Positions 28,401 to 44,925 of a stretch of DNA of 60,176 bases are shown one piece after another. The DNA is from a virus: the IMG/VR virus record IMGVR_UViG_3300027805_000002; one strand, given 5' to 3'. The notes beneath the pieces were generated by a model. The model made no database searches. It worked only from the letters and a program-made list of their open reading frames with translations, and had not been told where the DNA came from. The number at the start of each line of letters is the position of its first letter. Within the stretch, counting starts at the first letter, position 1. The position numbers were made by a program, and so were the translations under genes.

Positions 28401-30334
28401 CTGAGACAAACGCCGCGGGCTCTGCGTCTAGCGCAAGCACCTCTGCTACCAATGCGGCCAACTCTGCGACCAGCGCCGGCAATAGCGCCACGGCGGCATC
28501 TGGCAGCGCCTCGACTGCCTCGACTCAGGCCACGAACGCCTCGAACTCAGCAACTGCGGCCAACACCGCCAAAGTTGCCGCCGAGTCTGCGCGCGACAGC
28601 GCCGCGGGGAGCGCTACCGCTGCGTCTACAAGCGCGTCCAATGCGTCTACAAGCGCAAGCAATGCCGCCACTTCTGCATCTGCCGCCAACACTTCAGCAA
28701 CGAACGCGGCGACGAGTGAATCTAACGCGCTGACCTACAGGAACGATGCGTCGACTAGCGCATCCACCGCAACAACAAAGGCCAGCGAGGCGTCAACCAG
28801 CGCGGGCGCGGCGGCTACCTCCGCAACAAACGCCAACAACTCGGCGAGCGCCGCCTCAGGGTCTGCCAATACGGCATCGACAAAAGCCACCGAGGCGTCC
28901 CAGAGCGCGTCCTCCGCCAACACCTCCGCCAACAGCGCCTCGACATCAGCTAGCAATGCGCTGACCTACAGCAACAACGCCGCGACGTCGGCGTCGAACG
29001 CGGATGGGTCGGCCACCTCTGCGGCCACATCCCTGAATCAGGTCAGAGCAACCGCGACCGGGTTTGACTCGGCAATCGCGTGGAACTTCGACACCACGGT
29101 TGACGGTTGGACCAACAACTCGCAGGGCACGTTCACTTGGCAGTCAGGCGGCTTCGTCCGCATCGACGCCACCGGGGCCACGCCATACATTCGCAGCCCT
29201 GCCGGGCTAGCTATAGACGGATCAAAGAACACTTTGATCCGGGCTCGGGTCAGAAGAGTCGCGGGCTCGGGTTGGACAGGGCGGGCGTACTACACGACCT
29301 CAGGCCACGGCGAGACCACTGGCTTTTACAAGAGCATCCCTGACACGACGGTCACAAACGAGTGGCGCGTTTTGGAATGGGACATGGCCAACCTCACTGC
29401 CGGGGCGGCCGACTGGACATCGAGCACGATCACCAGAATACGACTTGACCTTGGTTTGACGACGGACGACTTCGACGTCGACTGGGTCACTGTGGGGCGC
29501 ATCGCCCCCATCGCCTACAGCGCGGCCATCGAGCAAGAGGCCACCGCAAGAGTCAACTCTGACAACAGCCTCTTCGCCCAGTACACCGTCAAGATCGACG
29601 CCAACGGCTATGTGTCTGGCTTTGGCCTCGCCAGCACCGCCATCAACGCCACCCCGACCAGCGAGTTCGCGGTACGGGCGGACAGGTTCTACATCGCCAA
29701 CCCGGCGGGAGCAGGCGTTGCCCCGGCCATGCCGTTCATCGTCCGCACGACGTCCACCACGATCAACGGCGTCAACGTCCCGGTGGGTGTGTACATCACC
29801 GACGGCTTCATCCAGAACGGCACGATCACCAACGCCCAGATAGCTGATGCAACGATCACCAACGCCAAGATAACCGACGTCACGATCACGGGCGGCAAGA
29901 TTGCCAACGCGACGCTGACCTCAGCCAAGTTCGCCGACACGGTGCAGTCCGACAACTACTCGGCAGGCAGCGCGGGCTGGATGATCAGCCGCAACACAGG
30001 CGCGGCGGAGTTTGGTTCGGCAACGATACGCGGCACCATCAACGGCGGCTCCTATACAGGGTATGCGTGGCCGGCGTCGGGAGGGACTGGATTCCACTTG
30101 GGGCCGAGCGGCCTGTTACTAGGCAACGCCAACGACGGCAAGTACTTTCAGGTTACCTCTGGCGGCGACCTGTACGCCCCACAGTTCAACATCGTCAACG
30201 GAGCGGCGTCCTTCAGCGGTGCGCTGAACGTGAAGAGCGCAGCGACTGGTTCGCGCGTCGAGATCAGCAATGCCGTCATCAAGATCTACGAGGGCGCGAC
30301 GCTGCGTGTGCAGCTTGGTAATTTGGCCGCGTAA
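25481..30334 (+). CDS. large tail fibre / host-specificity protein (1617 aa) with a J-like C-terminal region
   Basis: The C-terminal pattern AQYTVKIDANGYVSGFGLAS...EFAVRADRFYIANP resembles tip-attachment (J / DUF1983-type) proteins. Two Ser/Ala/Thr/Asn repeat blocks are present. Confidence 0.65.
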   Translation: MSRSDIPSPTAPNFDQRVRETLQTYLGRQGSPLDRGITVRDLLDTGVAKLKDGFTLGSGSSIPLEGTSTTTIVNNGGGGPAEEPDLTPPPTPSGFAATGGVNVVFITHDGPNYTQGHGHLRTRLYGAIYTGGALPTFNNAAEIAQFTGSVYSHPSNPSTTWHLWAKWETSDGVLSVSPAGGTNGVVVTTAVDVSLLLDALTGEITESQLFSALGARIDLIDAPTTGLVTKVTNLETAVGSTVSAAQSAAAAAASASAAAASEAAAILAESGAETASASAALSASDAAAAEAAAILAQSGAQTASASASQASSDAVAAKVAALAAQSGAETAEDNAVIARTSAETAASSASTSATSASNSATGAAGSASSASTSATNAATSATTAGNSASAASTSASSAATYATNAETASTAAQSAKVSAESARDNAAGSATAAATSASTATTKATEASQSATSAATSATTATTKASEASTSASQASTSATDASGSASSASTSATNAANSANAAGTSASNASTSATNAANSATNAAGSASTATTQATNAANSATSASNSASAASTSASSAATSATNAGNSATAAESSNLAAASSYGQAIRLNSNYDFGLGKTGWSTATADSTYSEIGGLIQTGGVTANSKLRIAGEAAGYWNRRIPIQTNRVYRIRFRVRSIGTTNSKVYAGVATFDADGVLQTAAPGTHRYCAASGVDVPSDGTWKVYTGTITGEAASATAFRTGSAFASPMFIVNYQQGSGFICEVDECSMEDITESTSAASSASAAATSASTATTKASEAASSASSANTSATNAATNASNAATSASQASTSETNAAGSASSASTSATNAANSANAAGTSASNASTSASQAATSATNAAGSASAASTSATNAANSETAAGGSATAASNSASGASTSATNAGNSATAANSAKVAAESARDAASGSATSAAGSASTATTKASEASTSASAANTSATNAATSASSAGTSATNASTSETNAAGSASSASTSATNAANSATSAGNSATAASGSASTASTQATNASNSATAANTAKVAAESARDSAAGSATAASTSASNASTSASNAATSASAANTSATNAATSESNALTYRNDASTSASTATTKASEASTSAGAAATSATNANNSASAASGSANTASTKATEASQSASSANTSANSASTSASNALTYSNNAATSASNADGSATSAATSLNQVRATATGFDSAIAWNFDTTVDGWTNNSQGTFTWQSGGFVRIDATGATPYIRSPAGLAIDGSKNTLIRARVRRVAGSGWTGRAYYTTSGHGETTGFYKSIPDTTVTNEWRVLEWDMANLTAGAADWTSSTITRIRLDLGLTTDDFDVDWVTVGRIAPIAYSAAIEQEATARVNSDNSLFAQYTVKIDANGYVSGFGLASTAINATPTSEFAVRADRFYIANPAGAGVAPAMPFIVRTTSTTINGVNVPVGVYITDGFIQNGTITNAQIADATITNAKITDVTITGGKIANATLTSAKFADTVQSDNYSAGSAGWMISRNTGAAEFGSATIRGTINGGSYTGYAWPASGGTGFHLGPSGLLLGNANDGKYFQVTSGGDLYAPQFNIVNGAASFSGALNVKSAATGSRVEISNAVIKIYEGATLRVQLGNLAA
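26205..27235 (+). repeat. Low-complexity S/A/T/N coding block 1 (ASTSATNAANSA-type)
   Basis: Direct reading of the translation. Confidence 0.8.
27750..29040 (+). repeat. Low-complexity S/A/T/N coding block 2
   Basis: Direct reading. Long stretches are near-duplicates of block 1. Confidence 0.8.
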
Positions 30335-30343
30335 GGAATTGAA

Positions 30344-30658
30344 GTGGCCTACGGTCTAAGAATATGGGATGCCAGCGGCAACTTAACGCTGGACACGACA
30401 GACCGGATAACTCGGTTTGTCACCCGTATTACGCCGGGTACTATTGCGCCTCTAACTACAGTTAATTACAGCGTCCCGGGTATTGCTGACGATGGCACTT
30501 GGTTTTTGGTGGTAAATACATGGAAGCCGTCGAGCTCGGCCTATTACTCTGATATTTATATGACAATCACATCCGATTTTATAAATGTCCGTAATATAAA
30601 CACCACTACCAATTGGACAAACGGGCTAGGCACTTACATAGAAGTATTTAGGGGTTAA
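30344..30658 (+). CDS. hypothetical protein (low-GC islet, paralogous N-terminus)
   Basis: GTG start after an AAGGA SD. The N-terminus MAYGLRIWDASGNLTLD resembles that of the next gene. Confidence 0.5.
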   Translation: MAYGLRIWDASGNLTLDTTDRITRFVTRITPGTIAPLTTVNYSVPGIADDGTWFLVVNTWKPSSSAYYSDIYMTITSDFINVRNINTTTNWTNGLGTYIEVFRG

Positions 30659-30659
30659 T

Positions 30660-31277
30660 ATGCCTTACGGTATTAACATATATAACGCCGCCAACAACAT
30701 TATTATTAGTCAAGACTTTAGCAACTATCATGTGGTTTCAAGTGGCACAATTGCAAACGGTGGGTCGTGGCCAACAGTGCCCAGCACCGACGTTATCTTT
30801 ATTAGAGCAAACACACCCGGAGCAATTATTAGTAACGATGGATCATTTGCTACTGTTTCTTCTGGCCTAATAGAATATGTTATTGTGCGCAGAAGCCCAA
30901 GTCCTTCTAGCTCAAGCTTCGGGTTAAGAGTCTATCAAAGTGATGGAATCTCCATCGCATTTGATAGCGGAGTAGCAGCGGCAAAAATTGTTTCTAGTCT
31001 CACAAGGCTTGGGCAGTCCAACGGGCTTTACACGAGTTATAGTACCATAATAAACCAACCATTTGCGGTTCCAGCCGGCAGAAAGCGATATATGACTGGC
31101 CAAGTTTTTATGGATTGGTCGCATATCTATATTCTCAATTTTATCCCCGGCATTGGGACTGATAAGCTCACTTGGACATCTGACATGCAGCAGACTGTTG
31201 GAACGGGATTCACTGGCGGCTTCGGCAATAAGTATGATTTATTTAGCACCAAAATATTTTTAACAATAGACATATAG
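30660..31277 (+). CDS. hypothetical protein (low-GC islet, paralogous N-terminus)
   Basis: The N-terminus is MPYGINIYNAANNIIISQD. Codon usage is visibly AT-rich. Confidence 0.5.
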   Translation: MPYGINIYNAANNIIISQDFSNYHVVSSGTIANGGSWPTVPSTDVIFIRANTPGAIISNDGSFATVSSGLIEYVIVRRSPSPSSSSFGLRVYQSDGISIAFDSGVAAAKIVSSLTRLGQSNGLYTSYSTIINQPFAVPAGRKRYMTGQVFMDWSHIYILNFIPGIGTDKLTWTSDMQQTVGTGFTGGFGNKYDLFSTKIFLTIDI

Positions 31278-31287
31278 AGGCCCACAA

Positions 31288-31890
31288 ATGATGAGTGTGT
31301 TCGTATACCTAGACCAAAATCAAACACCAACCGGCGTGCAGCGGTTTGAAACCATGCCGGGCGTGGACATAACTGTCCCGCCCGGAGCTTTGTATGTCGA
31401 GGACGCCTCCGTGTTGCCAAGCGACATGGAGATCATCGACCGCTGGCGGATGAAGGCGGGCGCCCTCTCGGACGTCGGGCCCGGCCCCAGCAAAGACTAC
31501 CGCTGGGATGTGACCTTAGAGCAGTGGGTGCCGGATGTGGCTCGGGCCAAAGCAGGCAAGCTCAAGGAAATCCGCGAAGCACGCGACCGTCTTGAGTACG
31601 GCGACTTTGTCTGGGATGGCTCCACGTTTGACTCCGACCCCCAAGCGCAACTGCGTATTCAAGGGGCCGTTCAACTGTCGACCATGTCCGCTGCCGTAGG
31701 CCAGCCCTTCTCCATCGACTGGACACTGGCCGACAACACGGTGCGCACCCTGTCCGGGGCCGACACGATTGCCGTGGGCATGACGCTGGCTGGGCATGTG
31801 CAGACGGTCCACGCCATCGCCCGGACCCTGCGCCTTCAGATCGAGGCGGCAACGACGCTGGCCGAGGTCGAGGCGGTGGTTTGGCCTTGA
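31288..31890 (+). CDS. DUF4376-like tail fibre-associated protein
   Basis: The segment KAGKLKEIREARDRLEYGDFVWDGSTFDSDPQAQLRIQGA...IEAATTLAEVEAV matches the DUF4376 pattern. Confidence 0.5.
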   Translation: MMSVFVYLDQNQTPTGVQRFETMPGVDITVPPGALYVEDASVLPSDMEIIDRWRMKAGALSDVGPGPSKDYRWDVTLEQWVPDVARAKAGKLKEIREARDRLEYGDFVWDGSTFDSDPQAQLRIQGAVQLSTMSAAVGQPFSIDWTLADNTVRTLSGADTIAVGMTLAGHVQTVHAIARTLRLQIEAATTLAEVEAVVWP

Positions 31891-31918
31891 TTACACAGCT
31901 GTGCCCGTACGCAATACC
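31891..31918 (+). promoter_or_regulatory. Candidate promoter TTACAC-N16-AATACC with the -35-like box overlapping ACAGCTGT
   Basis: The sequence is ttacACAGCTGTgcccgtacGCAATACCt, about 50 nt upstream of the GNAT gene. Confidence 0.35.
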
Positions 31919-31966
31919 TAGGCGGATCAGTACAATTCCTAGAGTGATACGCCATGAATCACAACT

Positions 31967-32395
31967 GTGAAACAGATTGTCGTCGACACGGAGCGAGTTC
32001 TAGGCTTCGTGCAGGAGCGCTGCTTCGTGCCTGCGGCCCAAAACATGATTGGGATTGGGCTTCAGGAAGACGGCGAGCTTTTGGCCGGCGTCCTGTACGA
32101 CGGCTTCAATGGGCAGAACGTCTGGATGCACGTCGCAGCCGCGTCTGGTCGCCACTGGCTAAACAGAGCCTTCCTCTGGTACTGCTTTGAGTACCCCTTC
32201 AACATCATGAAGGTCAAACGCATCAGCGGTTGGGTAGAGGCAGACAACGTAGAGGCTCGTCGCTTCGACGAACACCTCGGATTCACACACGAGACAACTC
32301 TTCGCGGCGCCGGCAAGAACGGCGTGGACGTACTGATCTACGTCATGTGGAGAGACCAGTGCCGATTCGTCGGCTCCGAGGAGTCCCATGGGTAA
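31967..32395 (+). CDS. GNAT-family N-acetyltransferase
   Basis: The C-terminal pattern ISGWVEADNVEARRFDEHLGFTHETTLRGAGKNGVDVLIYVM is typical of the GNAT fold. The start is GTG. Confidence 0.6.
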   Translation: MKQIVVDTERVLGFVQERCFVPAAQNMIGIGLQEDGELLAGVLYDGFNGQNVWMHVAAASGRHWLNRAFLWYCFEYPFNIMKVKRISGWVEADNVEARRFDEHLGFTHETTLRGAGKNGVDVLIYVMWRDQCRFVGSEESHG

Positions 32396-33446: not shown

Positions 33447-34600
33447 TGGCAAACCTTGGCGGATTCGCGGGTGGCCTCGCCTCGGGCTACATGGCCGGCG
33501 AGCGGATGAAGCTCTCAAAACAGGAAGACAAGCGGGCCGATGAGATGGCCCAGATGCGCAGGACTGAGTTTGAGTTCCAGCAGACCGAGCGGGCCAGAGA
33601 GCGCGCCATCAAGGACGAGCAGGCGGCGATCTTCAAGAAATGGCAGGACGGCTGGGAAGAGGACGAGCCGTTCCAGACCACCAACGACGCCGGTGAGGTG
33701 GTTCAGGGTGTCCGCAAGAAGATGGTCAAGCCTGACCTGAATGACCCAATGGCTCTAGCCCGTATGCAGGTCGAGATCGGCACTGCCCGCGCCCGTCAGA
33801 CCGGAGATCCGGCAAAGATGGCCGAGGCCTACAAGTACTTGCAATCGGTCAAGGCAAACGAGGCCGGCAACGCTGTCTTCAACTACCTCACCCGCGACTC
33901 CTCGGAGCCTTCTCGCGTGAAGGCTGCAACCGCCCTTGGCATCTCGCCCGATGATTTCAAGGTCACGAAGGACAAAGACAACCAGCCCGTCGTCGAGACT
34001 GGGGGTAAGGTTGTGCCGCTGCGTCCGATGCTGGCTCTTGTGGCTGGTGGCAATGCTTACGAGGCGTACCTCGCCGACCAGAAGGCCGCTCAGGAAAGAC
34101 GATCCTCAGAGCTTGGCAATCTACAGAAGGAAGCCGCAATCCGCCAGACCGACGCCCAAACCAACCTCGCGATACCGGCTCAGGCGCGGCAGGCTGATGC
34201 GGGTGCTGCGGCCTCGCGGGCAAGGGCCGGCTACGAGGGCGAAGCCCGTAACTCCTTGACCGAGGATCGAAACCTAAGAGCGATCAGCGGTCAGGTGAAC
34301 AGCATATTCCCGCCCCTGAAGGTCAAGGACCCTGTCACCGGCACCGAGCAGGTCACCCCCAGCCCGGCTGCGAACTATGTCAACCAGATCGTGCTGGCCA
34401 ACCCGGGCAAGGAGCGGGCAGTCGCCCAGCAGGCCATCGCCGCAGCCCAGCAGGTTGAGCAGGAGGCGCGTCGCAGACTCACCGCGCTGCGGGCAAACCC
34501 AGAGACATACAAGCAGGTCCTCAAGAACGCCAAGACGGACGAGAACATCTTGAACGTCTACATGCAGGACGGCCTCAGCAAGCTAGGGAAGCCCAAGTAA
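33446..34600 (+). CDS. putative internal virion protein
   Basis: ATG after a GGGAGG SD. The protein is charged and helical. Its stop overlaps the giant ORF start (TAATG). Confidence 0.45.
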   Translation: MANLGGFAGGLASGYMAGERMKLSKQEDKRADEMAQMRRTEFEFQQTERARERAIKDEQAAIFKKWQDGWEEDEPFQTTNDAGEVVQGVRKKMVKPDLNDPMALARMQVEIGTARARQTGDPAKMAEAYKYLQSVKANEAGNAVFNYLTRDSSEPSRVKAATALGISPDDFKVTKDKDNQPVVETGGKVVPLRPMLALVAGGNAYEAYLADQKAAQERRSSELGNLQKEAAIRQTDAQTNLAIPAQARQADAGAAASRARAGYEGEARNSLTEDRNLRAISGQVNSIFPPLKVKDPVTGTEQVTPSPAANYVNQIVLANPGKERAVAQQAIAAAQQVEQEARRRLTALRANPETYKQVLKNAKTDENILNVYMQDGLSKLGKPK

Positions 34601-37600
34601 TGGCAAACCTCATCTCCTCCGACGAACAACTGTTTGGTGGGGGAGTCGCCCCCGCCCCGACCCGCAATCTGGGCGGCGGTGGGTCGCTCATCGGCTCGGA
34701 TGAGGACCTGTTCGGCCTATCTGCCATGCCGGCAGCGGCGCCAAAGAGGACGGCCCTCGGCACGCTCGGGGACGTCGCGAACGTCGCCGCCAAGGGCGTC
34801 ATCGGGGTGGGTGAGGGCGTTGTTGGTCTGGCCAACATTCCGACCTTTGGCTACGCCGGCAAGGCGATGGAGTCGATTGGGTACGACCCCAAGAGGTCAA
34901 GAGAGATCCTCAACGACCTACTCCAGTCTGACGCGCAGAAGGCCGCTCAGCAGGAGGTAGATGCCGCAGAGGGCTTCACCGGCACTGTCAAGACAGCCCT
35001 AGAGAACCCCTCCACGATCTTGACGGCAGCGGGCGAGTCCCTGCCGTCTATGTTCGCTGGCGGCGCGATAGCCAAGGGGCTCAAGGGCCTCACCAACCTT
35101 GGTGGCTTTGCCCGGGCTGCGATCGGCGAAGGTGCCATCTCTGGCGGCCAGACCGCGGAGCAGATCCGACAGCAGACTGAAGACGGCACGCTCAGCCTTG
35201 GGCAGACTGCGATTGCCGTAGGATCTGGTGCGCTCACGGGCCTGCTGGGGTATGCCGGCGGGAAGCTCGCAAGGCGTCTCGGGATCGACGACATCGACGC
35301 TGTGGTTGCCGGGGTCAACGCGTCTGGGGCTGCGGCGAAGAGGGGGCTTGCGACAAGAGTTCTTGGCGCGGCGGTGCAAGAGGGCGTGATCGAGGAACTT
35401 CCTCAGTCGGCTCAGGAGCAGATCGCCCAGAACATTGCGCTGGACCGTCCGTGGGACGAGGGCGTCGACAAGGCTGCGGCCATGGGCATGCTGGCCGGGG
35501 CAGCGACTGGTGGCGGCTTCCAGCTGATGCCTCAGGGGCGCAGTGATCAGCCCCGGCAGTCTGGTCGCTCGGCGGAATTTGTCTCCCAAGCTTTCACCGA
35601 CGTAGGTGGCGCTGGGCAGACGATGGACGAGCTTGGCCGAGCCAAGGGCGCTGTGGCCTTCGCGCTGGCCAACCTAAATGACGACGAGGCTGGGCAGATC
35701 ATCTCCTCTGTCTCTTCCGGCAACGAACAGCTGATGCAACAGCTGTCCGCCGCGAGGGCAGACGCAGCACTCATCTCTTCGGGTCGCCAGTTCGCTCAAG
35801 ACAACCCGATTCAGTTCGCCGCCGTCAGTGACATGCTGCGAGTGGACTCTGGCTTGAACGAGGCGGACCCCAGCGACTCGACCTCGGCGCTGATTTCTCA
35901 GGAACTCAGCCGGGCTTTCCCTAGCATCTACCAGCAGCAGACTCAACAGGGCCAACAGCCTCAGCCGCCGCAGCAGCCGGCTGTCGACCCGGCCGGCGTC
36001 ACCAACACCGCCGGGTTCATCCCGGAGCCCCTTGAGCAGATTCAGGCCCAGATCACCGCTGTGACTGAAGGCCGCAAGCCCGCCGTGGTCGTCGGCATCC
36101 AAGAGGCGCAGAACGCCAACTTTGGCGGCCTGAGCACCGGCATCGCCACTGACCCCAACACAGGTGAGCAGGCGGTCGTGGCTGCGGCGGACGACGCCAC
36201 AGTGCAGGCGGCTGTCACCCGGACCGCCGAGGTGGGGCTGGCCCAAGCCATGGGCGAGGTGCTCGGCTACACCCAGCCGGGTCTGACCCAGCAGCAGGTC
36301 CCGGCCGCCGTGGTCCAGCAGGTCGACAACAATAGCGGGCAGATCCTCAGCGAGGAGGCTGTCACCCCTGAAGCCGCGGCTTCCGTGAACCGGGTGCCGG
36401 GGACTACGGCGCGGGTTGTGACCCCCGAGCAGGCCCTGCAAAGCCGCATGGAGCGGACCTCAACAGCTGTTGTTCAGCCTGAATTGGCCTCTACAGAGCC
36501 GGATTCGGTTGTTTCGCCTGTCGCCCAAGAGCAAAACGCTGTTCCCGCCGACACCACAGCTGTTCTGCCGGAACCCACAGCTGTCAATTGGGCGGCCACC
36601 GGCAGGACGTCCGGGCTGGTCAGCCTGCTCAACCGCAGCAACGGCCTTCAGGATGGCTCACCGAACTCGATCGACCCGAGCTCGGTCCGCGAGGTGGACA
36701 TCCGCAGCGTCAAGGATCGCAAGCAGCGCCGGCAACTGGGCCAGCTGGCCAAGGCGGCCAAGCTTGCCTTCGGCGTCGACCTGATCTTGGTGGACACCCC
36801 GGCCGGCGCGGTCAAGCGCATGGACGGCTCGGACTTCAACCAGTTCAACGGCGTCGCCCTGCCTGAGTCCAAACAGCTGTTCCTGAACGTCCGCGCCGCG
36901 ACGCCCCTGAACACGCTGGGCCACGAGCTTGCCCACATCCTTGAGGTGCAGGCCGCAGAAACCTACGCCCGCCTCGAAGACACCATCCTGACCCGGGTCC
37001 GCTTCGGCGCCGCCAAGCGCCTCCAGACGGCGTTGCAGCAGGCTGTACAGGCCGAGTCTCAGGGCGCCGTCGACATCAACCAGCGGGTTGCCGAGCTACG
37101 GTCGGAACTGATCGCTGAGTCCATCGGTGAGCTGACGGCAGACCCCAAGCTTTGGCGCGACATCTTCCAAGGCATGGGCACGGACTCGGCTCAGGTCAAG
37201 TCCCTGTACGACACCGTCATCGAGGCGGTCGGCCGTTTGGCCAAGGCATTCACCCGTGTCGGCTACATCGATGGCCTGAAGGACATGCAGGCTGTCCGCC
37301 GGGCGATCACCGACGCCTATGTGTCGTGGAGCGCAGCCCAGCAGGGCGCAGCCCCGGCACAGGTAAGCGCGCAGTCCTCTGCCCCGCCCCCGCGGGAGGC
37401 GGCAAGGTTCGACCGGTTGCCGCAGAAGCGCTTCTCGCCAGACAACTTCCCCGTAACCCTGACCGATGACGATCCGCTTCTACGGGAGACGATCACCATC
37501 TCTGGGCGGGCGCGACAGGATTTGCGCCGGGGAATCGTCGACCAGCACTTCCAGAGCACCAGCCCCAACCAGTACGGCAGGCCGATCCTCTTCCTAATGG

Positions 37601-40600
37601 GTGGTGGCGGTGGCGCGGGCAAGACAACCGCCATGGCCAAGCTGGCAGGCGCTGGGGTGATCCCTGACACCTCCACAGCTGTCACCGTCAACGCCGACGA
37701 AATCAAGGAGATGATCCCTGAGTTCGGCAAGATCAAGTCGGTCGGCGACTGGCGGGCCGCAGTGACGGTCCACGAAGAGTCGTCCCTGCTGACCAAGGCG
37801 GTTCAGCTGCGGGCGATGGGCGCGGCGGCGGATCAGGTCGAAGAGTCCCTAAAGCCCTATCTGCCGACAGCCTCGTCCGGGAAATACAACCTCGTCATCG
37901 ACGGCACTATGGCTGATGAGAGGAAGGGCCTACGCCTAATCTCGGACGCCGTGGACCGCGGCTACCACGTCGTGATGATGGGGGTGATCACCAAGCCGTC
38001 TGACGCAGTGGCCAGAGCGAAGTCCAGAGGTGAGCGAAGCGGCAGGTTCGTGCCGAACGACATCCTGTTCAACGCCCATGCTGGCTTTCTGTCTGTCCTT
38101 CAGGCATACTCGAACGTATTAGGGACCAACCTCCACCTTGTGGACAACAGTGGCCCCCAGCCGGTGATGACGGCGTTTGATGACGCCGCAAAGGAGAAGA
38201 TCCGTGAGTACATCGCAGATGCCGGGCGAGGCGCAGAAGAGATCCGAGCCAGCCGCTCCGGCCGAGCAGCAGAACCCGCTGCTGGGCAGCCTAAATCAGG
38301 CGCTCAAGAACTTCAACAACGCACCACCCGAGGACTTCCAGAAGCTACTGCGCGAGATGCAGCGCAAGGAGGAAGAGAAGGGCAAGGGCAGTCCGCCGAT
38401 GGTCTGGCCCGAGGAGTAGTCAAGCTTAGCCGCGCCAACATTCAGAGGGCGGCGAGCGGGGACCAGTCTGCCTCCGCGATGGAGGTCATGGGCAAGGCGC
38501 CCGACTACCTCGCTCGTGTCGGCATCAACCGCGAAGCGCCTCTGGTCATCGAGGCCGACGTCATCTACAAGGTCGCCACCGGCAAGGGCTACACCGGGAC
38601 CGAGAAGCGCACGCCGCTGACGGTTGACCAAATCCAGCAGCTGCCGCAGCTGCTACGCAACCCCGCCGCAGTCTTCGACGACCCCACCGACAAGAACAGC
38701 GTCGTCGTGATGACGAGCCTTGTCGTGGATCAGTTTGATCCGGTGGTCATCGCCATCTCCAAGGACGCCAAGTCAAACCGGGTGGACATCGTTCGCGTGT
38801 CCGGCTCGATCGAGATGAACAAGGGCGCCTACTCCCCGATCAAGACGGCGTTCGGCAAGGAGTGGGACAAGTTTGAGTCGTGGATGCGCAAGGAGAACGT
38901 CCTGCGCTACATCAACCCGAAGAACATCGACGCCGCCGTGCAGGCAGGGATGCCGAAGAGGCTGGCCCGCTCTCTGCGCGAGGCGCAGATCCTGTCGAAG
39001 GGGAGGGCGTACGTAGAAGGAGGGACCGCGTCACTTGCCCAGATTGCCTATTCCCCCCAGCAGCGTGAGGTAGCTTCAGGCAGCAACCCGGGGAGCCTCC
39101 GTCAAGCCCCTCCAGCGAGTATTGTGGCACTACCCGCGGGTAGTGTCAACCCGGCCAGCGGTCGCAAGGTCCTTGGCAAGAAGGTGCTGGCGCAGCGGGT
39201 TCTGGACCGCAACCCGATCTACGACGCGCTTCCCGAGAACTTGCGGTCCGCCTCGGTGGTTGAGCCCCTATACCGCAACGGACCGCTGTTCGCCTTCCCG
39301 TCCAACGCCGGCAAGATCAACACCCGCATTGGCGCCTACCTAGAGGAGCGCACCAAGAAGGCCCTCGGCCGGGAGCTTGATGTTGCTGACCCCGAGGACC
39401 AGAAGCTTGTTGCGAAGATGGCGGCGGCTGAGGCGGTCGAGGCCATGATCCGCGACGAGAACGCGTCCGAGTGGTACGACGAGACGATGGTCAAGGCCTT
39501 CGAGCTTGCGGCCTTGGTGCATCCGGAGATCAAGACCGATCCGCGGGCCAAGAACGCGTTTGCCTTGGTGACCGCCATCACGAGTCAGGGCCTCAATGTT
39601 GAGGACAACATGGCTTCCTCGCTCGAAATCTACGAGCAGTGGGTGGCCAGCAGCAATGACGCCAACAAGCGGTCCTTCCCTGAGCGCGGCGTTGGTAAAT
39701 CGTCCGGCGCGATGGCGAACAACTTCAAGAAGGCCAACCGCCTCATCGACGAGATGGGCTGGGACGAGTTCATCTCGTTCATGAACAGTTCGTACTCGAA
39801 CCGGTTCATGGAGAAGGTCTTCCGCGGCAATGTCGGGGGCGAGGGTCAGGACAACATCGTCTATGGCTCGGGCATCTTCGGGGCCAAGATCGGCAACGGC
39901 TTCTTCCAGAACCTGATGGGCAACTTCAAGCCCATCACCATGGACATGTGGTTCAGCCGCACGATCGGCCGCCTGTCAGGCCGCGTGCGCGCCTTCACCA
40001 ACGAGTTGATGGCGGACCAGCTGGAGAAGCTGCGCGCCGCCTTCGTGGAGGGGGGCGACGCCACGCGGTCGCTTCAGCCCGAGAGCTTTGGTGACCTCAT
40101 CGACGAGGATCTATTCCTGTCCGACGATGACTACGCCATGGGGATAGCCGAGGAGATCCGCCTCGCGCACGAGAAGGACTACAAGGCCAACCGTGCTGGC
40201 TTCGACAACCGTACGCGGTTCAAGTCGGCGCTAGTCAACGCGGCCGAGGCTGTTTCTGATACCTTGTACGGCCTGCGCGACAGCCCCGAGGGAGCAGCCC
40301 ATCGGGATCAGCTGCGCCAGATCTCGCTGATGGCGATCGAGGAGATCCGCCAATCAACGGGCGTCAATGTTGAGCCAGCCGCGTTTCAGGCCCTGATCTG
40401 GTATCCGGAGCAGCGCCTGTACAGGAAGATGGGCGGCAAGCAGCGCGTCGTGGGTCAGGATTACGTCGGCGCGATCACCAAAGAACTTCTACGCCGGGGA
40501 GTCGGAATTGAAGAAATCGAAGCAACCAAGCGGGCCGTTTCAGAACAGCTCCGAGCAAGTCGTACACGACCGCAGGGAGAGGGAGATGCTGGAGGACGAC

Positions 40601-43600
40601 CCGAATCTGGACAAGATGGCGCAGCGGGTACGAGAAGCAATGAAGGCCGGGTTGTTCAAGAGTCAGCGCAAGAGTTCTCCGGACAAAACCTGATCTTCGA
40701 GGTCGCCCCTGACCCGGGCAACCAAGCTCTGACTGCTGCATGGAACAGCCTGCCCGCTGACAAGCGGCTGAAGATCAGCCAGAAGCTCGCCAAGCGCTAC
40801 AGCAAGAGGGTCCTGAGCGCCCTCGGCATGACCGGTGAAATGGTCTCGCAGATTGGCGGCTACATGGACTTCACCAACCCAAGCCTGACGATTCGTCTGG
40901 GCAAGGGGGGTGACCCGGTGTTGGCCGCCGGGATGCTGGGGCACGTGCTGTCGCAAGACTCCATGGTCGTCATCTCTGAGACCTCTTTCAAGGGCGGAGA
41001 ACTCACGGGCGCGGTTGAAATCGACGTGCCCGCAGACATCACTCTGGAGCAGGCCGACAAGCTCTATCAGGAACTGCGCAAGATCAAGGGCGCGGACGGC
41101 AACAGCCTTGTTGGCGGACACACCACCGCCTCAGGCAAGATGGCCATCCTCAATTACTCCGGCCTGAGTAATGAGGAGTTGGCGTCTCGCATTGACCGGC
41201 ATTTGGCCGGCGGCTACACTGTTCGATACAGAGACGTATTTGTCTCGTTCCCCGAAAAGCAGGACTACAACTATGCCGGTGATCAACGAGACAGGCCAAC
41301 CGCTGCCAGACGGCCATCCTTTCAAGGGGACGCGAATCGCCTTCGGGCAGCAGCCTCGTCCGACATCGAAGCCGAGCTCCGCTCCGCAGGCGTCAAGTTC
41401 TCCCGCACCCAAGGTGTTGCACGACTTGCAGAACCTGCCGGAGGACCCGGTACTGGGGGTGATCAGGGCCCGGGATCGGTACGCGGAGCAGTCCACTACG
41501 GACGATCAGGCTTCCTAAGCCAGCTGACGGGGTCGGCATTCGGCTCCGGCATCCGCGGGGCTGAACAGCAGCGGCTTTCTGAGCCCGGGGTCGACCCACG
41601 CATCAAGAAGCGGGTCTACTTCTACCTGCCGGCTGAAGGAGGCATTCCTCAGCCTGAGATCGGCCTTGGTTCGCACGTCTACGAGGCGGACCTGTCAAAC
41701 CTCTACGACCCGGAGTCAATGCCGGCCGTCAAAGGTCAAGGCAACGCACTTGAGTCGGCGATCCTTGATGCCGGCTACCGCGGGTACATCAACCGAGAGC
41801 AGGGCACAGCTGTTGTCCTGAATGAAGATGTGCCGGTGCAGTATCAAGGCACCCGTGACGGCAAGGTCGTCGTGCCCCGCCGCATCCAGCGGTTGGAGCC
41901 GAAGATCGCAACCCGGGAGGAGCGCGGTGAGTCGGTTCGCAAGGCTGACCAAGTCATCAGCCTGAAGGCCAAGGAGGCTGCGCAGGCCGCCGCCCCAAGC
42001 TTCCGCATGGAGTATGGCGAGGCGCGGGTCAAGACCAGAGAGAAGGACGCCGCCAACGCCGCCCTTGAGGCCGCAGGCTCCCAGTTCCGCTTCAGCCGCC
42101 CCCTCAAGGCCATGACCGTGCAGGAGGCGCTGGATATGGCGCGCACTGGTCAGCCCGCCTACACGCTAGGGGATGCGGTAGAGCGTGGGCAGTGGGCAGA
42201 GGCCTACCGGCTAGCCAAGAACCAACAGCAGCGCCAACAGCTGTTTGGTAGGCTCGGTGACTGGCTGATCGAGACCTTCGCTGACGCCATGATTCCGGTC
42301 AAGCGTTGGATCGATGCCTTGCCCTTGAGCGGCAGCCTGAAGCAGCGCCTCAGTGGCGACCTGTACCGGGCCGCGGCACTGCGCTCAACGATGCAGAAGG
42401 AACTGAAGCAGCAGTTCACCGAGCCCATGTTCCGCGCCATCGAGGCCGCCGCCAAGAGCAGCAAGCTCACGTCGGATCAGGTCAAGATGCTGGCCGGCTA
42501 CTGGATGTCGGCCAAGTACGCGCCCAAGGCTAACGCGTGGCTGATCACCAAGGACCGCACAGCACTCATTGCTGCCCAGCAGTCTGGCGATCCTACGGCG
42601 ATTGCCGAGGCTCAGAAAAGCCTCAACGACCGGCTCGCTGACGTCAACGGCGTGATCGGCGCAACACGGGCCCGCGGCGTGGCTGGTGGCTTCAACAACG
42701 CCGAGGCTGCGCAGATGGTGGCCGACGTCGAGAGCAAGATCAGTCGACAGCTGTTGGACGAGATCTCGTCGCACGTCTACGGGATGATGGCGTGGAAGCG
42801 CGCTCGCGACATCCGCTCTGGCAAGGTCAGTCAGACAGCTGTCAACAGCTGGCCGAACCACCGCGACTACGTGCCGCTTACGGGCGACCCGCGCTGGAGC
42901 CCGGAGTCGGATGACGTGTTCTCAACCGGCGGGGCCCTAAACCAAGAGGCCGACAAGGCGATCAACGGGCGCAAGGACAGTGTGGCTGATGACGCCATCG
43001 ATGCGGCCTTCACAGCTGTGGTGAAGTCGGTCAACTTCAGCGCGATGCAGGACTTCAAGCGCTCATTGGCGAGGGCCTACAACGAGGCTGCGGCGCAAGG
43101 CGTCGACATCGGCCTCAAGCGCGAGCCCGTCACCGGGATCATCCGCCCCGGCGATGACGTGGTCATCCACCGAGACACCTACACCGCCCCTAACGGGCTG
43201 CAAAGCTCACAGGCGGTGGCCTACCGGTTCGACGACAAGGCCGTCATCGGGGCCCTAAAGAAGGAGAACATCGAAACCACGAACGCCCTGCTCAGCACAG
43301 TCTCCACTCCGACACGGTGGTACGGCCGGCTGGTCACACAGTTCATGCCGATGTTCGCCCCGATCAACCTTGTGCGCGACGTCTGGGAGCGGTCTGAGCT
43401 TGTCCGCACCCGCAAGCTGCTGGATCGCAATGGCCAGCAGATCGACACCGACCGGGTGGCCAGAGCAGCGATCGCCGAGACCATCAACCCGCGCCTGTGG
43501 AAGGCCAGCTTTGCCTCGAACTTCAACCGTGCCGGCCAAAGCCCGGAGCGGGCGGATCTGGAGGAAATGATCAGGCTGGGCGGCTCATCGGTCTGGGGCG

Positions 43601-44925
43601 ACTACCTTGCCCGCAACTCAGGCGACCTTGAGGCCGAGCTTCGGCAGAGCTTTGGCAAGACCGCGGCGGTTGGTCGACTCACCAACACAGCTGTGGAGTC
43701 GTACAACAACACCTTTGAAATGATCGCGCCGCTGTCTATCTACAGGGCGCTGAAGGCTCAAGGCATGGAGGCCAAGGATGCGGCCGCCGCCACGCTGGAT
43801 CTGATGAACTTCAAGAAGCGCGGCTCAGCCATGCCAGCGATCCGCGCCCTGTACGTGTTCGCCCAACCTGCGGCTACGTCGGGCTACAACCTGATGCAGT
43901 ACCTGTCCACCGCCAAGGGCAAGAAGCGCTTTGCGGCACAGCTGTTGATCGGCACCGCGCTGTACGCCTTCCTGCGCGGCATGTGGGGCGACGATGAAGA
44001 TGATGAGGAACTCGGCAACAAGCTCGACAACCTCAGCAACTTCACGGTTGAGCGCTCGATCCCGATCCCGATCGGCGACCGCGTGGTGAAGATCCCGGTC
44101 GGCTTCGGAGCGCCGCAGCTGGCGTGGTCGGCCTCAGGCATCCTGAACCGCTGGCAGAGTGGCCGCTACGACACGGCCGACGCTCTGGGTGAGCTAGCTA
44201 AGGGCTGGGTGAAGTCCGTGTCCCCAGTGGCGCCATCAGACATCGAGCTTGCCAAGCGGCCAGCCAACTGGTTGATGATGACCTTCACCCCGACCGTCCT
44301 GCGGCCCCTGACCAGCATTGCCTCGGACCAGACCGCCTTTGGGCAGCCGCTGACCCCGGTGTTCAAGAGCGCGGACAAGTTCCGCAGCGAGCAGGCTCGC
44401 CGGACCACACCACGGGCGTATACCGAGGTGGCCAAGGAGATCCGCGAGATGACCGGGGTCGACCTGTACCCGGATCACATCAAGGCGCTGGCGGATGGCT
44501 ACCTCATCGGCCCGATGCGCGAGATCACCTCCTCGCTCATCGAGAACCCGTCGAAGGAGCAGCGCGGCGAGAAGGGCCGGATGCCGCTGGTGGCCTCGAT
44601 CGTCGACAACGTCAACGACCGCCAGATCCTGAACAGCGTCTACTACCGGACCCGGCAGGATCTGGAGGACGCGAACCGGGAGTACGAGTCACGACTGCGC
44701 GACGGCACCCTCGCGGGATGGCTGGACGGCGAGAAGTTCCAAAAGGTGCAGGCCTACAAGCGGATGGAACTCGTTGAACGCAAGATGGGCAGCCTGCGCG
44801 GCGTGCTCACCAAGCAGCGCGACCGCATGGATGCGGACGTGTACGCAGACCGCTTGCAGGAGATTGAAACGCGGGTGGATGAGGAGAGAAGGAAGGCCCT
44901 CGTGGCAGCCGTCCAGATGAGGTGA
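34600..44925 (+). CDS. giant polyvalent virion protein (3441 codons as one ORF) with a zincin HExxH motif and a Zeta-toxin-like kinase domain; may be a fusion or a multi-product locus
   Basis: HELAH lies at 36922-36936. The P-loop GGGGGAGKTT at 37600-37629 is followed by NADEIK...YNLVIDGT...GYHVVMMGV...GRFVP, a Zeta-toxin pattern. Three +1-frame islands are listed as separate features. Confidence 0.6.
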   Translation: MANLISSDEQLFGGGVAPAPTRNLGGGGSLIGSDEDLFGLSAMPAAAPKRTALGTLGDVANVAAKGVIGVGEGVVGLANIPTFGYAGKAMESIGYDPKRSREILNDLLQSDAQKAAQQEVDAAEGFTGTVKTALENPSTILTAAGESLPSMFAGGAIAKGLKGLTNLGGFARAAIGEGAISGGQTAEQIRQQTEDGTLSLGQTAIAVGSGALTGLLGYAGGKLARRLGIDDIDAVVAGVNASGAAAKRGLATRVLGAAVQEGVIEELPQSAQEQIAQNIALDRPWDEGVDKAAAMGMLAGAATGGGFQLMPQGRSDQPRQSGRSAEFVSQAFTDVGGAGQTMDELGRAKGAVAFALANLNDDEAGQIISSVSSGNEQLMQQLSAARADAALISSGRQFAQDNPIQFAAVSDMLRVDSGLNEADPSDSTSALISQELSRAFPSIYQQQTQQGQQPQPPQQPAVDPAGVTNTAGFIPEPLEQIQAQITAVTEGRKPAVVVGIQEAQNANFGGLSTGIATDPNTGEQAVVAAADDATVQAAVTRTAEVGLAQAMGEVLGYTQPGLTQQQVPAAVVQQVDNNSGQILSEEAVTPEAAASVNRVPGTTARVVTPEQALQSRMERTSTAVVQPELASTEPDSVVSPVAQEQNAVPADTTAVLPEPTAVNWAATGRTSGLVSLLNRSNGLQDGSPNSIDPSSVREVDIRSVKDRKQRRQLGQLAKAAKLAFGVDLILVDTPAGAVKRMDGSDFNQFNGVALPESKQLFLNVRAATPLNTLGHELAHILEVQAAETYARLEDTILTRVRFGAAKRLQTALQQAVQAESQGAVDINQRVAELRSELIAESIGELTADPKLWRDIFQGMGTDSAQVKSLYDTVIEAVGRLAKAFTRVGYIDGLKDMQAVRRAITDAYVSWSAAQQGAAPAQVSAQSSAPPPREAARFDRLPQKRFSPDNFPVTLTDDDPLLRETITISGRARQDLRRGIVDQHFQSTSPNQYGRPILFLMGGGGGAGKTTAMAKLAGAGVIPDTSTAVTVNADEIKEMIPEFGKIKSVGDWRAAVTVHEESSLLTKAVQLRAMGAAADQVEESLKPYLPTASSGKYNLVIDGTMADERKGLRLISDAVDRGYHVVMMGVITKPSDAVARAKSRGERSGRFVPNDILFNAHAGFLSVLQAYSNVLGTNLHLVDNSGPQPVMTAFDDAAKEKIREYIADAGRGAEEIRASRSGRAAEPAAGQPKSGAQELQQRTTRGLPEATARDAAQGGREGQGQSADGLARGVVKLSRANIQRAASGDQSASAMEVMGKAPDYLARVGINREAPLVIEADVIYKVATGKGYTGTEKRTPLTVDQIQQLPQLLRNPAAVFDDPTDKNSVVVMTSLVVDQFDPVVIAISKDAKSNRVDIVRVSGSIEMNKGAYSPIKTAFGKEWDKFESWMRKENVLRYINPKNIDAAVQAGMPKRLARSLREAQILSKGRAYVEGGTASLAQIAYSPQQREVASGSNPGSLRQAPPASIVALPAGSVNPASGRKVLGKKVLAQRVLDRNPIYDALPENLRSASVVEPLYRNGPLFAFPSNAGKINTRIGAYLEERTKKALGRELDVADPEDQKLVAKMAAAEAVEAMIRDENASEWYDETMVKAFELAALVHPEIKTDPRAKNAFALVTAITSQGLNVEDNMASSLEIYEQWVASSNDANKRSFPERGVGKSSGAMANNFKKANRLIDEMGWDEFISFMNSSYSNRFMEKVFRGNVGGEGQDNIVYGSGIFGAKIGNGFFQNLMGNFKPITMDMWFSRTIGRLSGRVRAFTNELMADQLEKLRAAFVEGGDATRSLQPESFGDLIDEDLFLSDDDYAMGIAEEIRLAHEKDYKANRAGFDNRTRFKSALVNAAEAVSDTLYGLRDSPEGAAHRDQLRQISLMAIEEIRQSTGVNVEPAAFQALIWYPEQRLYRKMGGKQRVVGQDYVGAITKELLRRGVGIEEIEATKRAVSEQLRASRTRPQGEGDAGGRPESGQDGAAGTRSNEGRVVQESAQEFSGQNLIFEVAPDPGNQALTAAWNSLPADKRLKISQKLAKRYSKRVLSALGMTGEMVSQIGGYMDFTNPSLTIRLGKGGDPVLAAGMLGHVLSQDSMVVISETSFKGGELTGAVEIDVPADITLEQADKLYQELRKIKGADGNSLVGGHTTASGKMAILNYSGLSNEELASRIDRHLAGGYTVRYRDVFVSFPEKQDYNYAGDQRDRPTAARRPSFQGDANRLRAAASSDIEAELRSAGVKFSRTQGVARLAEPAGGPGTGGDQGPGSVRGAVHYGRSGFLSQLTGSAFGSGIRGAEQQRLSEPGVDPRIKKRVYFYLPAEGGIPQPEIGLGSHVYEADLSNLYDPESMPAVKGQGNALESAILDAGYRGYINREQGTAVVLNEDVPVQYQGTRDGKVVVPRRIQRLEPKIATREERGESVRKADQVISLKAKEAAQAAAPSFRMEYGEARVKTREKDAANAALEAAGSQFRFSRPLKAMTVQEALDMARTGQPAYTLGDAVERGQWAEAYRLAKNQQQRQQLFGRLGDWLIETFADAMIPVKRWIDALPLSGSLKQRLSGDLYRAAALRSTMQKELKQQFTEPMFRAIEAAAKSSKLTSDQVKMLAGYWMSAKYAPKANAWLITKDRTALIAAQQSGDPTAIAEAQKSLNDRLADVNGVIGATRARGVAGGFNNAEAAQMVADVESKISRQLLDEISSHVYGMMAWKRARDIRSGKVSQTAVNSWPNHRDYVPLTGDPRWSPESDDVFSTGGALNQEADKAINGRKDSVADDAIDAAFTAVVKSVNFSAMQDFKRSLARAYNEAAAQGVDIGLKREPVTGIIRPGDDVVIHRDTYTAPNGLQSSQAVAYRFDDKAVIGALKKENIETTNALLSTVSTPTRWYGRLVTQFMPMFAPINLVRDVWERSELVRTRKLLDRNGQQIDTDRVARAAIAETINPRLWKASFASNFNRAGQSPERADLEEMIRLGGSSVWGDYLARNSGDLEAELRQSFGKTAAVGRLTNTAVESYNNTFEMIAPLSIYRALKAQGMEAKDAAAATLDLMNFKKRGSAMPAIRALYVFAQPAATSGYNLMQYLSTAKGKKRFAAQLLIGTALYAFLRGMWGDDEDDEELGNKLDNLSNFTVERSIPIPIGDRVVKIPVGFGAPQLAWSASGILNRWQSGRYDTADALGELAKGWVKSVSPVAPSDIELAKRPANWLMMTFTPTVLRPLTSIASDQTAFGQPLTPVFKSADKFRSEQARRTTPRAYTEVAKEIREMTGVDLYPDHIKALADGYLIGPMREITSSLIENPSKEQRGEKGRMPLVASIVDNVNDRQILNSVYYRTRQDLEDANREYESRLRDGTLAGWLDGEKFQKVQAYKRMELVERKMGSLRGVLTKQRDRMDADVYADRLQEIETRVDEERRKALVAAVQMR
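38219..38419 (+). CDS. +1-frame island 1 inside the giant ORF (66 codons; alternative C-terminus or embedded small gene)
   Basis: The +1 frame reads MPGEAQKRSEPAAPAEQQNPLLGSLNQALKNFNNAPPEDFQKLLREMQRKEEEKGKGSPPMVWPEE. By hand count, 56 of 66 codons are G/C-ending here against 26 of 67 in the main frame. Confidence 0.35.
   Translation: MPGEAQKRSEPAAPAEQQNPLLGSLNQALKNFNNAPPEDFQKLLREMQRKEEEKGKGSPPMVWPEE
40586..40693 (+). CDS. +1-frame island 2 inside the giant ORF (35 codons from the ATG; signal starts about 40553)
   Basis: The +1 frame reads MLEDDPNLDKMAQRVREAMKAGLFKSQRKSSPDKT. An AGGGAG lies 6 nt before the ATG. Main-frame codons here are mostly A/T-ending. Confidence 0.3.
   Translation: MLEDDPNLDKMAQRVREAMKAGLFKSQRKSSPDKT
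41273..41518 (+). CDS. +1-frame island 3 inside the giant ORF (81 codons)
   Basis: The +1 frame reads MPVINETGQPLPDGHPFKGTRIAFGQQ...KVLHDLQNLPEDPVLGVIRARDRYAEQSTTDDQAS. The signal is mixed in the middle (41350-41410), where the main frame looks better. Confidence 0.3.
   Translation: MPVINETGQPLPDGHPFKGTRIAFGQQPRPTSKPSSAPQASSSPAPKVLHDLQNLPEDPVLGVIRARDRYAEQSTTDDQAS

Follow-up and report, generated by a model that had tools for sequence, protein, structure and literature searches.

Small genes read in the +1 frame inside a larger gene of the same strand are familiar from the embedded spanin genes of phages, lambda Rz/Rz1 and T7 18.5/18.7, in which the inner gene has its own ribosome-binding site and start codon and both products are functional. 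Two proteins are likewise obtained from one stretch of sequence in phiX174 (E within D, B and K within A) and in MS2 (L), the conserved parts of one product lying over tolerant parts of the other; in these classic overprinted genes, the nested frame is young and of atypical composition. Overprinted genes of small phages have been reviewed (PMC8227390), as have programmed frameshift products such as dnaX gamma, the tail chaperone G/GT and the +1 capsid and tail products of Listeria phage PSA (PMC5009743), which share with the case reported here a conserved alternative-frame peptide ending at a nearby stop. Polymorphic-toxin effector-immunity cassettes and zeta/epsilon pairs, finally, link a small partner gene to an effector module and have orphan copies. 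The present analysis concerns IMG/VR virus record IMGVR_UViG_3300027805_000002, a 60,176-nucleotide (nt) stretch hereafter called the window, and in it a 10.3-kb open reading frame (ORF) for a polyvalent virion/effector protein (34600..44925, + strand, frame 0, 3441 amino acids (aa) in the ORF list), together with three segments of this giant ORF, islands 1 to 3, that appear to encode small proteins in the +1 frame.

A polypeptide of a phage or plasmid counts as polyvalent if it unites several effector or LPD domains that are unrelated to one another (Iyer et al. 2017, PMC5512222). As the giant protein combines Zeta_toxin (aa 988-1170), MuF_C (aa 1335-1443) and LPD38 (aa 3140-3321), all above Pfam thresholds, and its gene lies among virion genes, it is a polyvalent protein in that sense. 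The host gene is thus of a published kind, but nested genes at module junctions are absent from that description, and the words frameshift, overlapping and linker do not occur in the paper (PMC5512222). Unlike Rz/Rz1, the present locus has three nested genes per host gene, each confined to an inter-domain linker of the 3441-aa polyvalent protein and devoid of a lipoprotein signal or known lysis link, and two of them belong to families that also occur as stand-alone genes. In contrast to phiX174 and MS2, it is the nested frame that is genome-typical in codon usage, while the host frame, i.e. the linker, looks derived. Differing from programmed frameshift products, the small ORFs show no shift site, have their own start codon and Shine-Dalgarno (SD) sequence, and have homologues without an upstream frame. 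As compared with effector-immunity cassettes, the putative partner overlaps the effector gene instead of following it, and shows sequence similarity neither to Epsilon nor to any known immunity family.

From the sequence evidence set out below, we consider it very likely that the 10.3-kb ORF is a single polyvalent gene carrying three independently translated +1 small genes in its inter-module linkers. The giant ORF would be translated whole in frame 0, while the three small genes (71 or 66, 61 and 81 codons), one per inter-module linker, would be translated in +1 by internal initiation on the same mRNA, each at its own SD and start codon, and would end at their own stops. The island DNA would code in both frames, with the small protein bearing most of the sequence constraint and the giant protein forming there a Gly/Arg/Ala/Pro-rich flexible linker that needs only openness and a few motifs. 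Production of the small proteins is what we infer from these signals; gene finders have called several nested ORFs as genes inside intact giant ORFs.

A sequence-only reading of the window had pointed to three alternative ORFs, each shifted by +1 against the giant ORF, and had taken the +1 frame for genuine coding and the main frame for linker text. The offsets (3577, 5908 and 6571) are indeed each 1 modulo 3, and the codon statistics agree with that proposal. Its hand count of codons ending in G or C in island 1 proved exact (56/66 in +1 versus 26/67 in the main frame); the corresponding figures are 46/61 versus 24/62 in island 2 and 62/81 versus 42/82 in island 3. In sliding windows, the GC content at third positions (GC3) of the main frame drops from 0.79 to 0.32-0.42 in the islands (about 0.35 in islands 1 and 2), while GC at main-frame position 1, which is the third position of +1 codons, climbs to 0.78-0.86. 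A codon-usage log-likelihood model was trained on 18 other genes of the window, and maximal segments were scored for +1 versus main frame. Exactly three segments favoured +1, namely 38215-38416 (41.0 nats), 40480-40672 (35.9 nats) and 41272-41509 (25.5 nats), the next-best one inside the giant ORF reaching 7.2 nats. Within the 18 training genes, the largest +1 advantage was 0.7 nats in 5430 windows, this control being made of 120-nt sliding-window scores and not of maximal segments. The three segments coincide, from start codon to stop, with +1 ORFs (38204 or 38219-38419, 40508-40693 and 41273-41518) that lie wholly inside 34600-44925 on the same strand but in a different frame, so that all three nested genes could be located by frame-specific codon statistics alone. 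A further +1 ORF of 73 codons follows the MuF_C module (39122-39343), with a codon-usage signal of only 7 nats (39094-39145); a small peak that matches this segment is found at 13565-13616 of a related locus, L001. Together, these signals are insufficient for a gene call.

The absence of a canonical start near the island stops, noted in the sequence-only reading, holds for the main frame, the relevant starts being in +1. Among the 181 out-of-frame starts of the giant ORF, only 6 have both an SD duplex at least as stable as -6 kcal/mol and an ORF no shorter than 55 codons, and five of these six are inside the islands. Each nested ORF of the window has its own start with an SD at initiation spacing: AAGGAG-N7-GTG, GGGGAG-N6-TTG and AGGA-N8-ATG for islands 1, 2 and 3, respectively. 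At the homologous Met of other loci, the SD duplex ranges from -5 to -15 kcal/mol in most cases, and is weak (-0.9 kcal/mol) in locus L018.

Nested gene 3 (41273..41518, + strand, +1 frame) starts with ATG, encodes 81 aa and ends at TAA 41516-41518, a second stop occurring two codons later. AGGA (41261-41264) precedes its ATG by 8 nt. Its core motif DLQNLPEDP is encoded by 41423..41449 (+ strand), where the main frame reads RLAEPAGGP over the same bases. A profile of island-3-type +1 peptides retrieved 113 database proteins, nearly all of 60-170 aa, and a hidden Markov model (HMM) made from these proteins matched nested gene 3 at E=1.6e-16. We define the DLQNLPxDPA family as proteins of 60-100 aa with an N-terminal PDDPIY/IFGxG-type motif, a Ser/Pro/Thr-rich spacer and an invariant DLQNLPxDPA followed by a helix; nested gene 3 shows all these traits, and the family alignment has 62 members. 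Longer members also exist, such as P0033 (166 aa), which has two motif copies (YDLQNLPFDPAVEA and FDLKSLPLDLAHEA), and P0018 (156 aa). Locus L001, which holds the gene of the homologous protein P0001, displays +1 codon-usage segments at the homologous place, and its +1 peptide is clearly homologous to nested gene 3 (...DLQNLPEDPALGAMRA...STTDDxxx*), with the same stop and the second stop two codons on. Within the DLQNLPEDP-containing stretch, most DNA differences between the two leave the +1 residue unchanged but alter the main-frame one. The impression, in the sequence-only reading, of a better main frame midway through island 3 was well founded, since VKFSRT, which lies there, is conserved in the main frame of homologues.

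Downstream of island 3 lies what we term the HYG module (41467..42099, + strand, frame 0), which belongs to no Pfam family, is 65% identical to that of P0001/L001, and was found at 23 loci in a scan of viral contigs. In about half of these loci, the linker leading to the module contains a +1 ORF of 75-95 codons, while the remaining ones have a short main-frame linker of different composition without a nested ORF. Conversely, most DLQNLP genes precede an HYG module: at 16 of 24 distinct sites, a biased sample, HY[GSN] follows in frame 0 after 23-33 codons. Twenty distinct DNA copies agree in the residues D, L, N, L, D and P of DLQNLPxDPA but spell them with different codons (GAC/GAT, CTG/CTC/CTT/CTA/TTG, AAC/AAT and CCG/CCC/CCT, among others). 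Their differences per site amount to 0.26, 0.23 and 0.56 at the first, second and third nested codon positions, respectively, and the main-frame reading of the DLQNLP stretch is much more variable than the nested reading. Genomic GC content of the loci measured spans 0.47-0.63.

The start region of this family is also maintained. In the four group-1 loci, i.e. those sharing the upstream module of the window, TAC RAC TAT GSC is the invariable spelling of DY(N/D)Y(A/G) in the main frame, a frame-0 codon choice that creates the +1 ATG and thus holds the start codon; this ATG stands 7-8 nt after a purine-rich SD (AAGGAG in L002). A second DLQNLP group derives its ATG from AAT GGN and its SD from TGG AAG GAG. 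True stand-alone DLQNLP copies reside in an island of about 6 kb with an integrase and a helix-turn-helix (HTH) repressor and have a strong SD (AAAGGAGG or AGAGGAG), and their Met1 aligns with the Met of the nested copies (MGKVTLNPLVAPDSPIY versus MAKVTFLPLAPENSPIY). These stand-alone genes (L034 800-3298, L028 9014-10201) lie in the integrase/HTH_3 repressor island, where two genes whose products have lipoprotein or signal-peptide N-termini come immediately before them; in L034, the next gene after the DLQNLP gene looks PD-(D/E)xK nuclease-like to us. Two chromosomal copies are decayed junction remnants in which the main frame is stopped or truncated while the small ORF is intact with its SD and start; one of them recurs on many contigs (50 according to its cluster record). 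As one copy adjoins a terminase fragment, the DLQNLP protein had been considered as a small terminase, a candidate that was dropped because the locus is such a decayed junction remnant. One apparently stand-alone call (L029) is actually nested, and P0003 and P0005 come from inside intact giant ORFs of 2974 and >2886 codons, so that gene finders picked up the nested frame there.

Nested gene 2 (40508..40693, + strand, +1 frame) has a TTG start, encodes 61 aa and ends at TGA 40691-40693. Its SD, GGGGAG (40496..40501, + strand), is located 6 nt before TTG 40508 (duplex -7.6 kcal/mol). An alternative internal ATG exists at 40586, and the AGGGAG that the sequence-only reading placed 6 nt before it is present at 40574-40579 (duplex -8.2 kcal/mol). 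This gene is tied to the preceding module, which we call IWYPEQ (39337..40539, + strand, frame 0, no Pfam family; motif at 40396-40413). The module was matched by tblastn in P0002, L002, L033, L018 and L008, and a profile scan added 80 further viral loci. All 85 IWYPEQ loci (85/85) have a +1 ORF of at least 40 codons right after the module (71 distinct peptides), and none of the 85 has a main-frame stop within the nested ORF. These ORFs form the QPNLDQDxHDKW family, defined here as +1 ORFs of 50-75 aa that start about 37 codons past the IWYPEQ motif of the upstream module; the consensus is M-x-N-x-x-AQQPNLDQDxHDKW...RLA...LARSK, and an AAAGAGG or GAAGGA SD stands before the conserved Met. Nested gene 2 occupies the family position, as TTG 40508 lies 37 codons after the motif at 40396, and with a family HMM built without the window it ranked top among all six-frame ORFs of the window (E=0.009; next E=2). 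We conclude from these data that it is most likely a divergent member of this family. P0002 ends with its IWYPEQ module, and a separate gene of 96 aa comes immediately next.

Selection on the nested frame was assessed in 353 pairs of IWYPEQ loci that are 70-97% identical upstream, a limitation imposed because family-wide per-position variability is saturated for island 2. Over the 100 codons that lead up to the nested Met, the pairs show 0.137/0.081/0.466 differences per site at frame-0 positions 1/2/3, whereas the values are 0.326/0.211/0.188 inside the nested ORF, so that the most variable site becomes the third position of the +1 frame. Both the island 2 and the island 3 families therefore bear the mark of purifying selection on the nested frame, the most variable site being the nested third position in each. 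The DLQNLP HMM matched neither island 1 nor island 2, and the idea that all three islands form one family was dropped on that account. Islands 2 and 3 of the window show a weak PEDPxL-like similarity (z=3.8). One nested ORF, at 4859-5161 of L008 (same contig as L099), joins an N-terminal part of the island 2 family type (QPQNEDQEEFDK...) to a DLQNLP-type motif (LDLNNLPFDPALAAM), which suggests that the two small-protein families are related or recombining.

The same layout is present in a cultured phage. Limnohabitans phage DC33 (PQ492659.1; PMC12195039) is short-tailed and icosahedral, with a 39-kb double-stranded DNA (dsDNA) genome, and encodes a 3125-residue 'hypothetical protein' with IWYPEQ and HYG modules. 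Right after its IWYPEQ module we found an unannotated +1 ORF (AAGGAG-N7-ATG) that matches the family HMM at E=0.005 and receives no mention in the DC33 paper (PMC12195039). GC by main-frame position is 0.61/0.54/0.37 in this nested stretch versus 0.61/0.42/0.61 for the gene. Another +1 ORF of DC33 (L124 5960-6150; MENPQSLPNQEPEVAAF..., 62 aa, AAGGA-N5-ATG) precedes the HYG module, does not match the DLQNLP family, and is possibly a third type of nested gene. The taxonomy line of PQ492659.1 says Inoviridae, at odds with the short-tailed icosahedral 39-kb dsDNA phage described in the paper.

Nested gene 1 (38204..38419, + strand, +1 frame) is situated in the linker between the Zeta-toxin and MuF_C modules, and starts either at GTG 38204 (71 aa) or at ATG 38219 (66 aa), with TAG 38417-38419 as its stop. 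Its codon signal is the strongest of the three, and its SD, AAGGAG (38191..38196, + strand; 7 nt before GTG 38204), has a duplex energy of -8.7 kcal/mol, within the best 5% of the 181 out-of-frame starts. The stop comes directly before the VKLSR motif of the next module. +1 ORFs directly after Zeta modules were also seen in L003, L033 and L123, two of which are mutually homologous (z=9.3). Pfam searches at E<=1 gave no match for island 1 or its L003 and L033 counterparts, which places none of them among Epsilon antitoxins or immunity proteins. Scans of viral contigs with 8-mers of the island 1 and 2 peptides, and the word-indexed search, yielded no homologues, and an exhaustive phmmer search with island 1 returned only three eukaryotic repeat proteins, judged spurious. 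Metagenome scans for the Zeta-MuF_C junction and the MuF_C module were empty, as was the viral scan for MuF_C. On codon usage and start signals, island 1 is probably a nested gene.

Several observations indicate that both frames are kept. When the island sequences were recoded synonymously with the small peptides fixed and the codon usage of the window, frame 0 stayed open in 15%, 4.7% and 7.2% of trials for islands 1, 2 and 3, respectively; in the window it is open through all three islands, which points to retention of both frames. Frame 0 is likewise open at 18 of the 24 DLQNLP sites. The Phe-Asp codons of this family are TTC GAC or TTC GAT in nested and remnant copies, and TTT GAC in two stand-alone copies; TTT GAC would put a TGA into frame 0, a stop that TTC GAC and TTC GAT avoid. 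Between L002 and L033, the modules show a third-position excess of differences (e.g. 5/2/24), whereas differences over island 3 are low and flat (7/5/7 to 9/5/8), which suggests a double constraint. Moreover, conserved stretches of one frame overlie variable stretches of the other.

For the islands, the sequence-only reading had offered four explanations, namely fusion of ancestral genes, programmed +1 frameshifting, small genes overprinted in linker DNA, and compensating indel errors of the assembly, and it is the third that gained support, from the start signals, the +1 selection in islands 2 and 3, and the homologues. Programmed +1 frameshifting at each island, yielding nested products of about 1270, 2030 and 2300 aa with conserved +1 tails, could account for the conservation of the +1 peptides, for stops close to the next module and for a main frame that stays open, and it could also make use of the SD-like sequences upstream of the islands, as such sequences can stimulate frameshifting in prfB and dnaX. 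These SDs, however, stand 6-8 nt before a conserved start codon, which is the spacing of initiation; the onset of +1 conservation coincides with the ATG, many loci have a +1 stop just a few codons ahead of the conserved Met, and stand-alone or remnant homologues without an upstream frame-0 gene begin at the same Met. Neither an X_XXY_YYZ heptamer at the island starts nor a frame-0 stop that could act as a pause site within the ORF was found (rare codons were outside the search), and an Rfam search found no RNA element. Start signals and stand-alone homologues also render frameshifting unnecessary, and it appears very improbable to us.

The gene-fusion explanation, which has frameshift mutations uniting once separate genes and leaving the +1 ORFs as defunct tails or defunct small genes with their former codon usage, fits the better agreement of the islands with +1 than with the translated frame, the P0002 arrangement of a terminal IWYPEQ module with a separate small gene next to it, and the lack of a homologue for island 1. 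Yet +1 purifying selection in the island 2 and 3 families extends across deep divergence (host modules at <=43% aa identity, DLQNLP loci over the GC range given above), with start codons and SD sequences maintained, and over such distances a dead ORF would lose frame and codon bias. This selection pattern excludes dead fossils for islands 2 and 3, which are not scrambled remains, and for the locus as a whole we regard fossil status as very improbable. As an account of origin, fusion may still apply, given the asymmetry in codon usage, which suggests greater age for the nested frame and a derived status for the linker reading. As to compensating assembly indels, or an artefact of composition in low-complexity linkers, a single sequence with two frame changes per island would look the same, and the linkers are Gly/Ala/Arg/Pro-rich. 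The two-frame layout nevertheless recurs in >100 independently assembled contigs and in the genome of a cultured phage, with the same +1 peptides in dozens of independent contigs; homologues that lack the nested ORF have short linkers of different composition, and peptide motifs are kept through synonymous codon changes. Recurrence in independent assemblies and in a cultured phage excludes assembly error, already refuted for islands 2 and 3, and we give this explanation next to no credence.

Some findings weigh against three translated small genes in the linkers. The ATG of island 3 is preceded by an SD of mediocre strength (-4.7 kcal/mol, 28th percentile), and the AlphaFold2 (AF2) model of the nested gene 3 protein has no globular fold (predicted TM score 0.30). 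For nested gene 2, the family match is weak (12.8 bits), and the start is TTG instead of the ATG of the family; the locus pairs behind the substitution counts are not phylogenetically independent, although the phase switch is nonetheless large. Neither 5.8 billion clustered proteins (word-indexed search) nor 1.84 billion representatives yielded a homologue of island 1, whose similarity to the post-Zeta +1 ORFs is not significant, be it to that of L003 (z=2.1) or to those of L033 and L123; island 1 could be a young or decaying ORF.

With regard to function, the AF2 model based on the 62-sequence alignment shows, for nested gene 3, an extended chain with a single helix (residues 59-79) immediately behind the motif, confidence being high only at about residues 50-70; the pattern suggests to us a peptide whose short motifs contact a partner. 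Our guess, by analogy, is that the small proteins are module-specific partners, either inhibitor- or immunity-like or helpers in folding or packaging, of the adjacent effector modules. The likeness to effector-partner pairs comes from the tie of the island 2 family to one module (85/85), the small ORFs after Zeta modules, and the persistence of orphan DLQNLP genes. Under a more detailed scenario, which we regard as rather unlikely, effector-plus-partner cassettes were fused, and the partner genes were kept alive as the giant frame came to read through them as linker, the nested proteins being cognate inhibitors or chaperones. If this were true, they would keep each module inactive, or packaging-competent, in the producing cell, and the orphan copies in bacterial chromosomes and small integrase islands would confer immunity against injected effectors. 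Against a partner role it must be said that the case for it is confined to linkage and orphan copies, and that Pfam and PHROG scans of the small proteins matched no family and detected no Epsilon antitoxin similarity. The genes next to stand-alone copies offered no functional clue when scanned against PHROGs, a text search for the DLQNLP motif found no paper, and tblastn of the family peptides against deposited phages gave no match.

Taken as nested genes, these ORFs would add at least two conserved small-protein families, present in >100 sampled viral contigs and absent from Pfam and PHROGs. As automatic annotation forbids genes inside genes, such proteins are invisible in phage genomes. Their location at module junctions, tied to particular modules, offers a testable idea of how polyvalent proteins are assembled in evolution, and also hints at the handling of toxic modules during virion production.

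The window represents a temperate podovirus-like phage genome, with genes for the large terminase (TerL), portal, major head protein, internal virion protein, integrase and primase-helicase. The giant ORF closes the structural module, and the integrase gene is next downstream. Comparison of 37600-42000 with deposited phages by blastn gave no match, and the central region of the giant protein has only two protein homologues, P0001 and P0002. A motif scan located KLSR (38422..38433, + strand, frame 0) directly after the stop of nested gene 1. The motif, [KR][FYL]S[RL], recurs at 41395-41406 (KFSR) and 42088-42099 (RFSR) and marks module N-termini, being conserved at module starts in P0001 and many loci. 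It edges modules with or without a nested gene (VKLSR, VKFSRT and FRFSR in the window; KFSLR, RFSRT and KYSLG elsewhere, L001-L024) and could be a processing or recognition site; we found no description of this module-edge motif.

Two further regions of the window deserve mention. Positions 30001-32000 are low in GC (0.53 versus about 0.62 elsewhere) and include a 205-codon ORF (30660-31277) whose GC3 is only 0.41, unlike all other long ORFs of the window, and which is possibly a recently acquired gene. Upstream of it, a 1617-codon ORF (25481-30334) with long Ala/Ser/Thr-rich repeats gave spurious low-complexity tblastn matches with P0001 and probably encodes a fibre-like structural protein.

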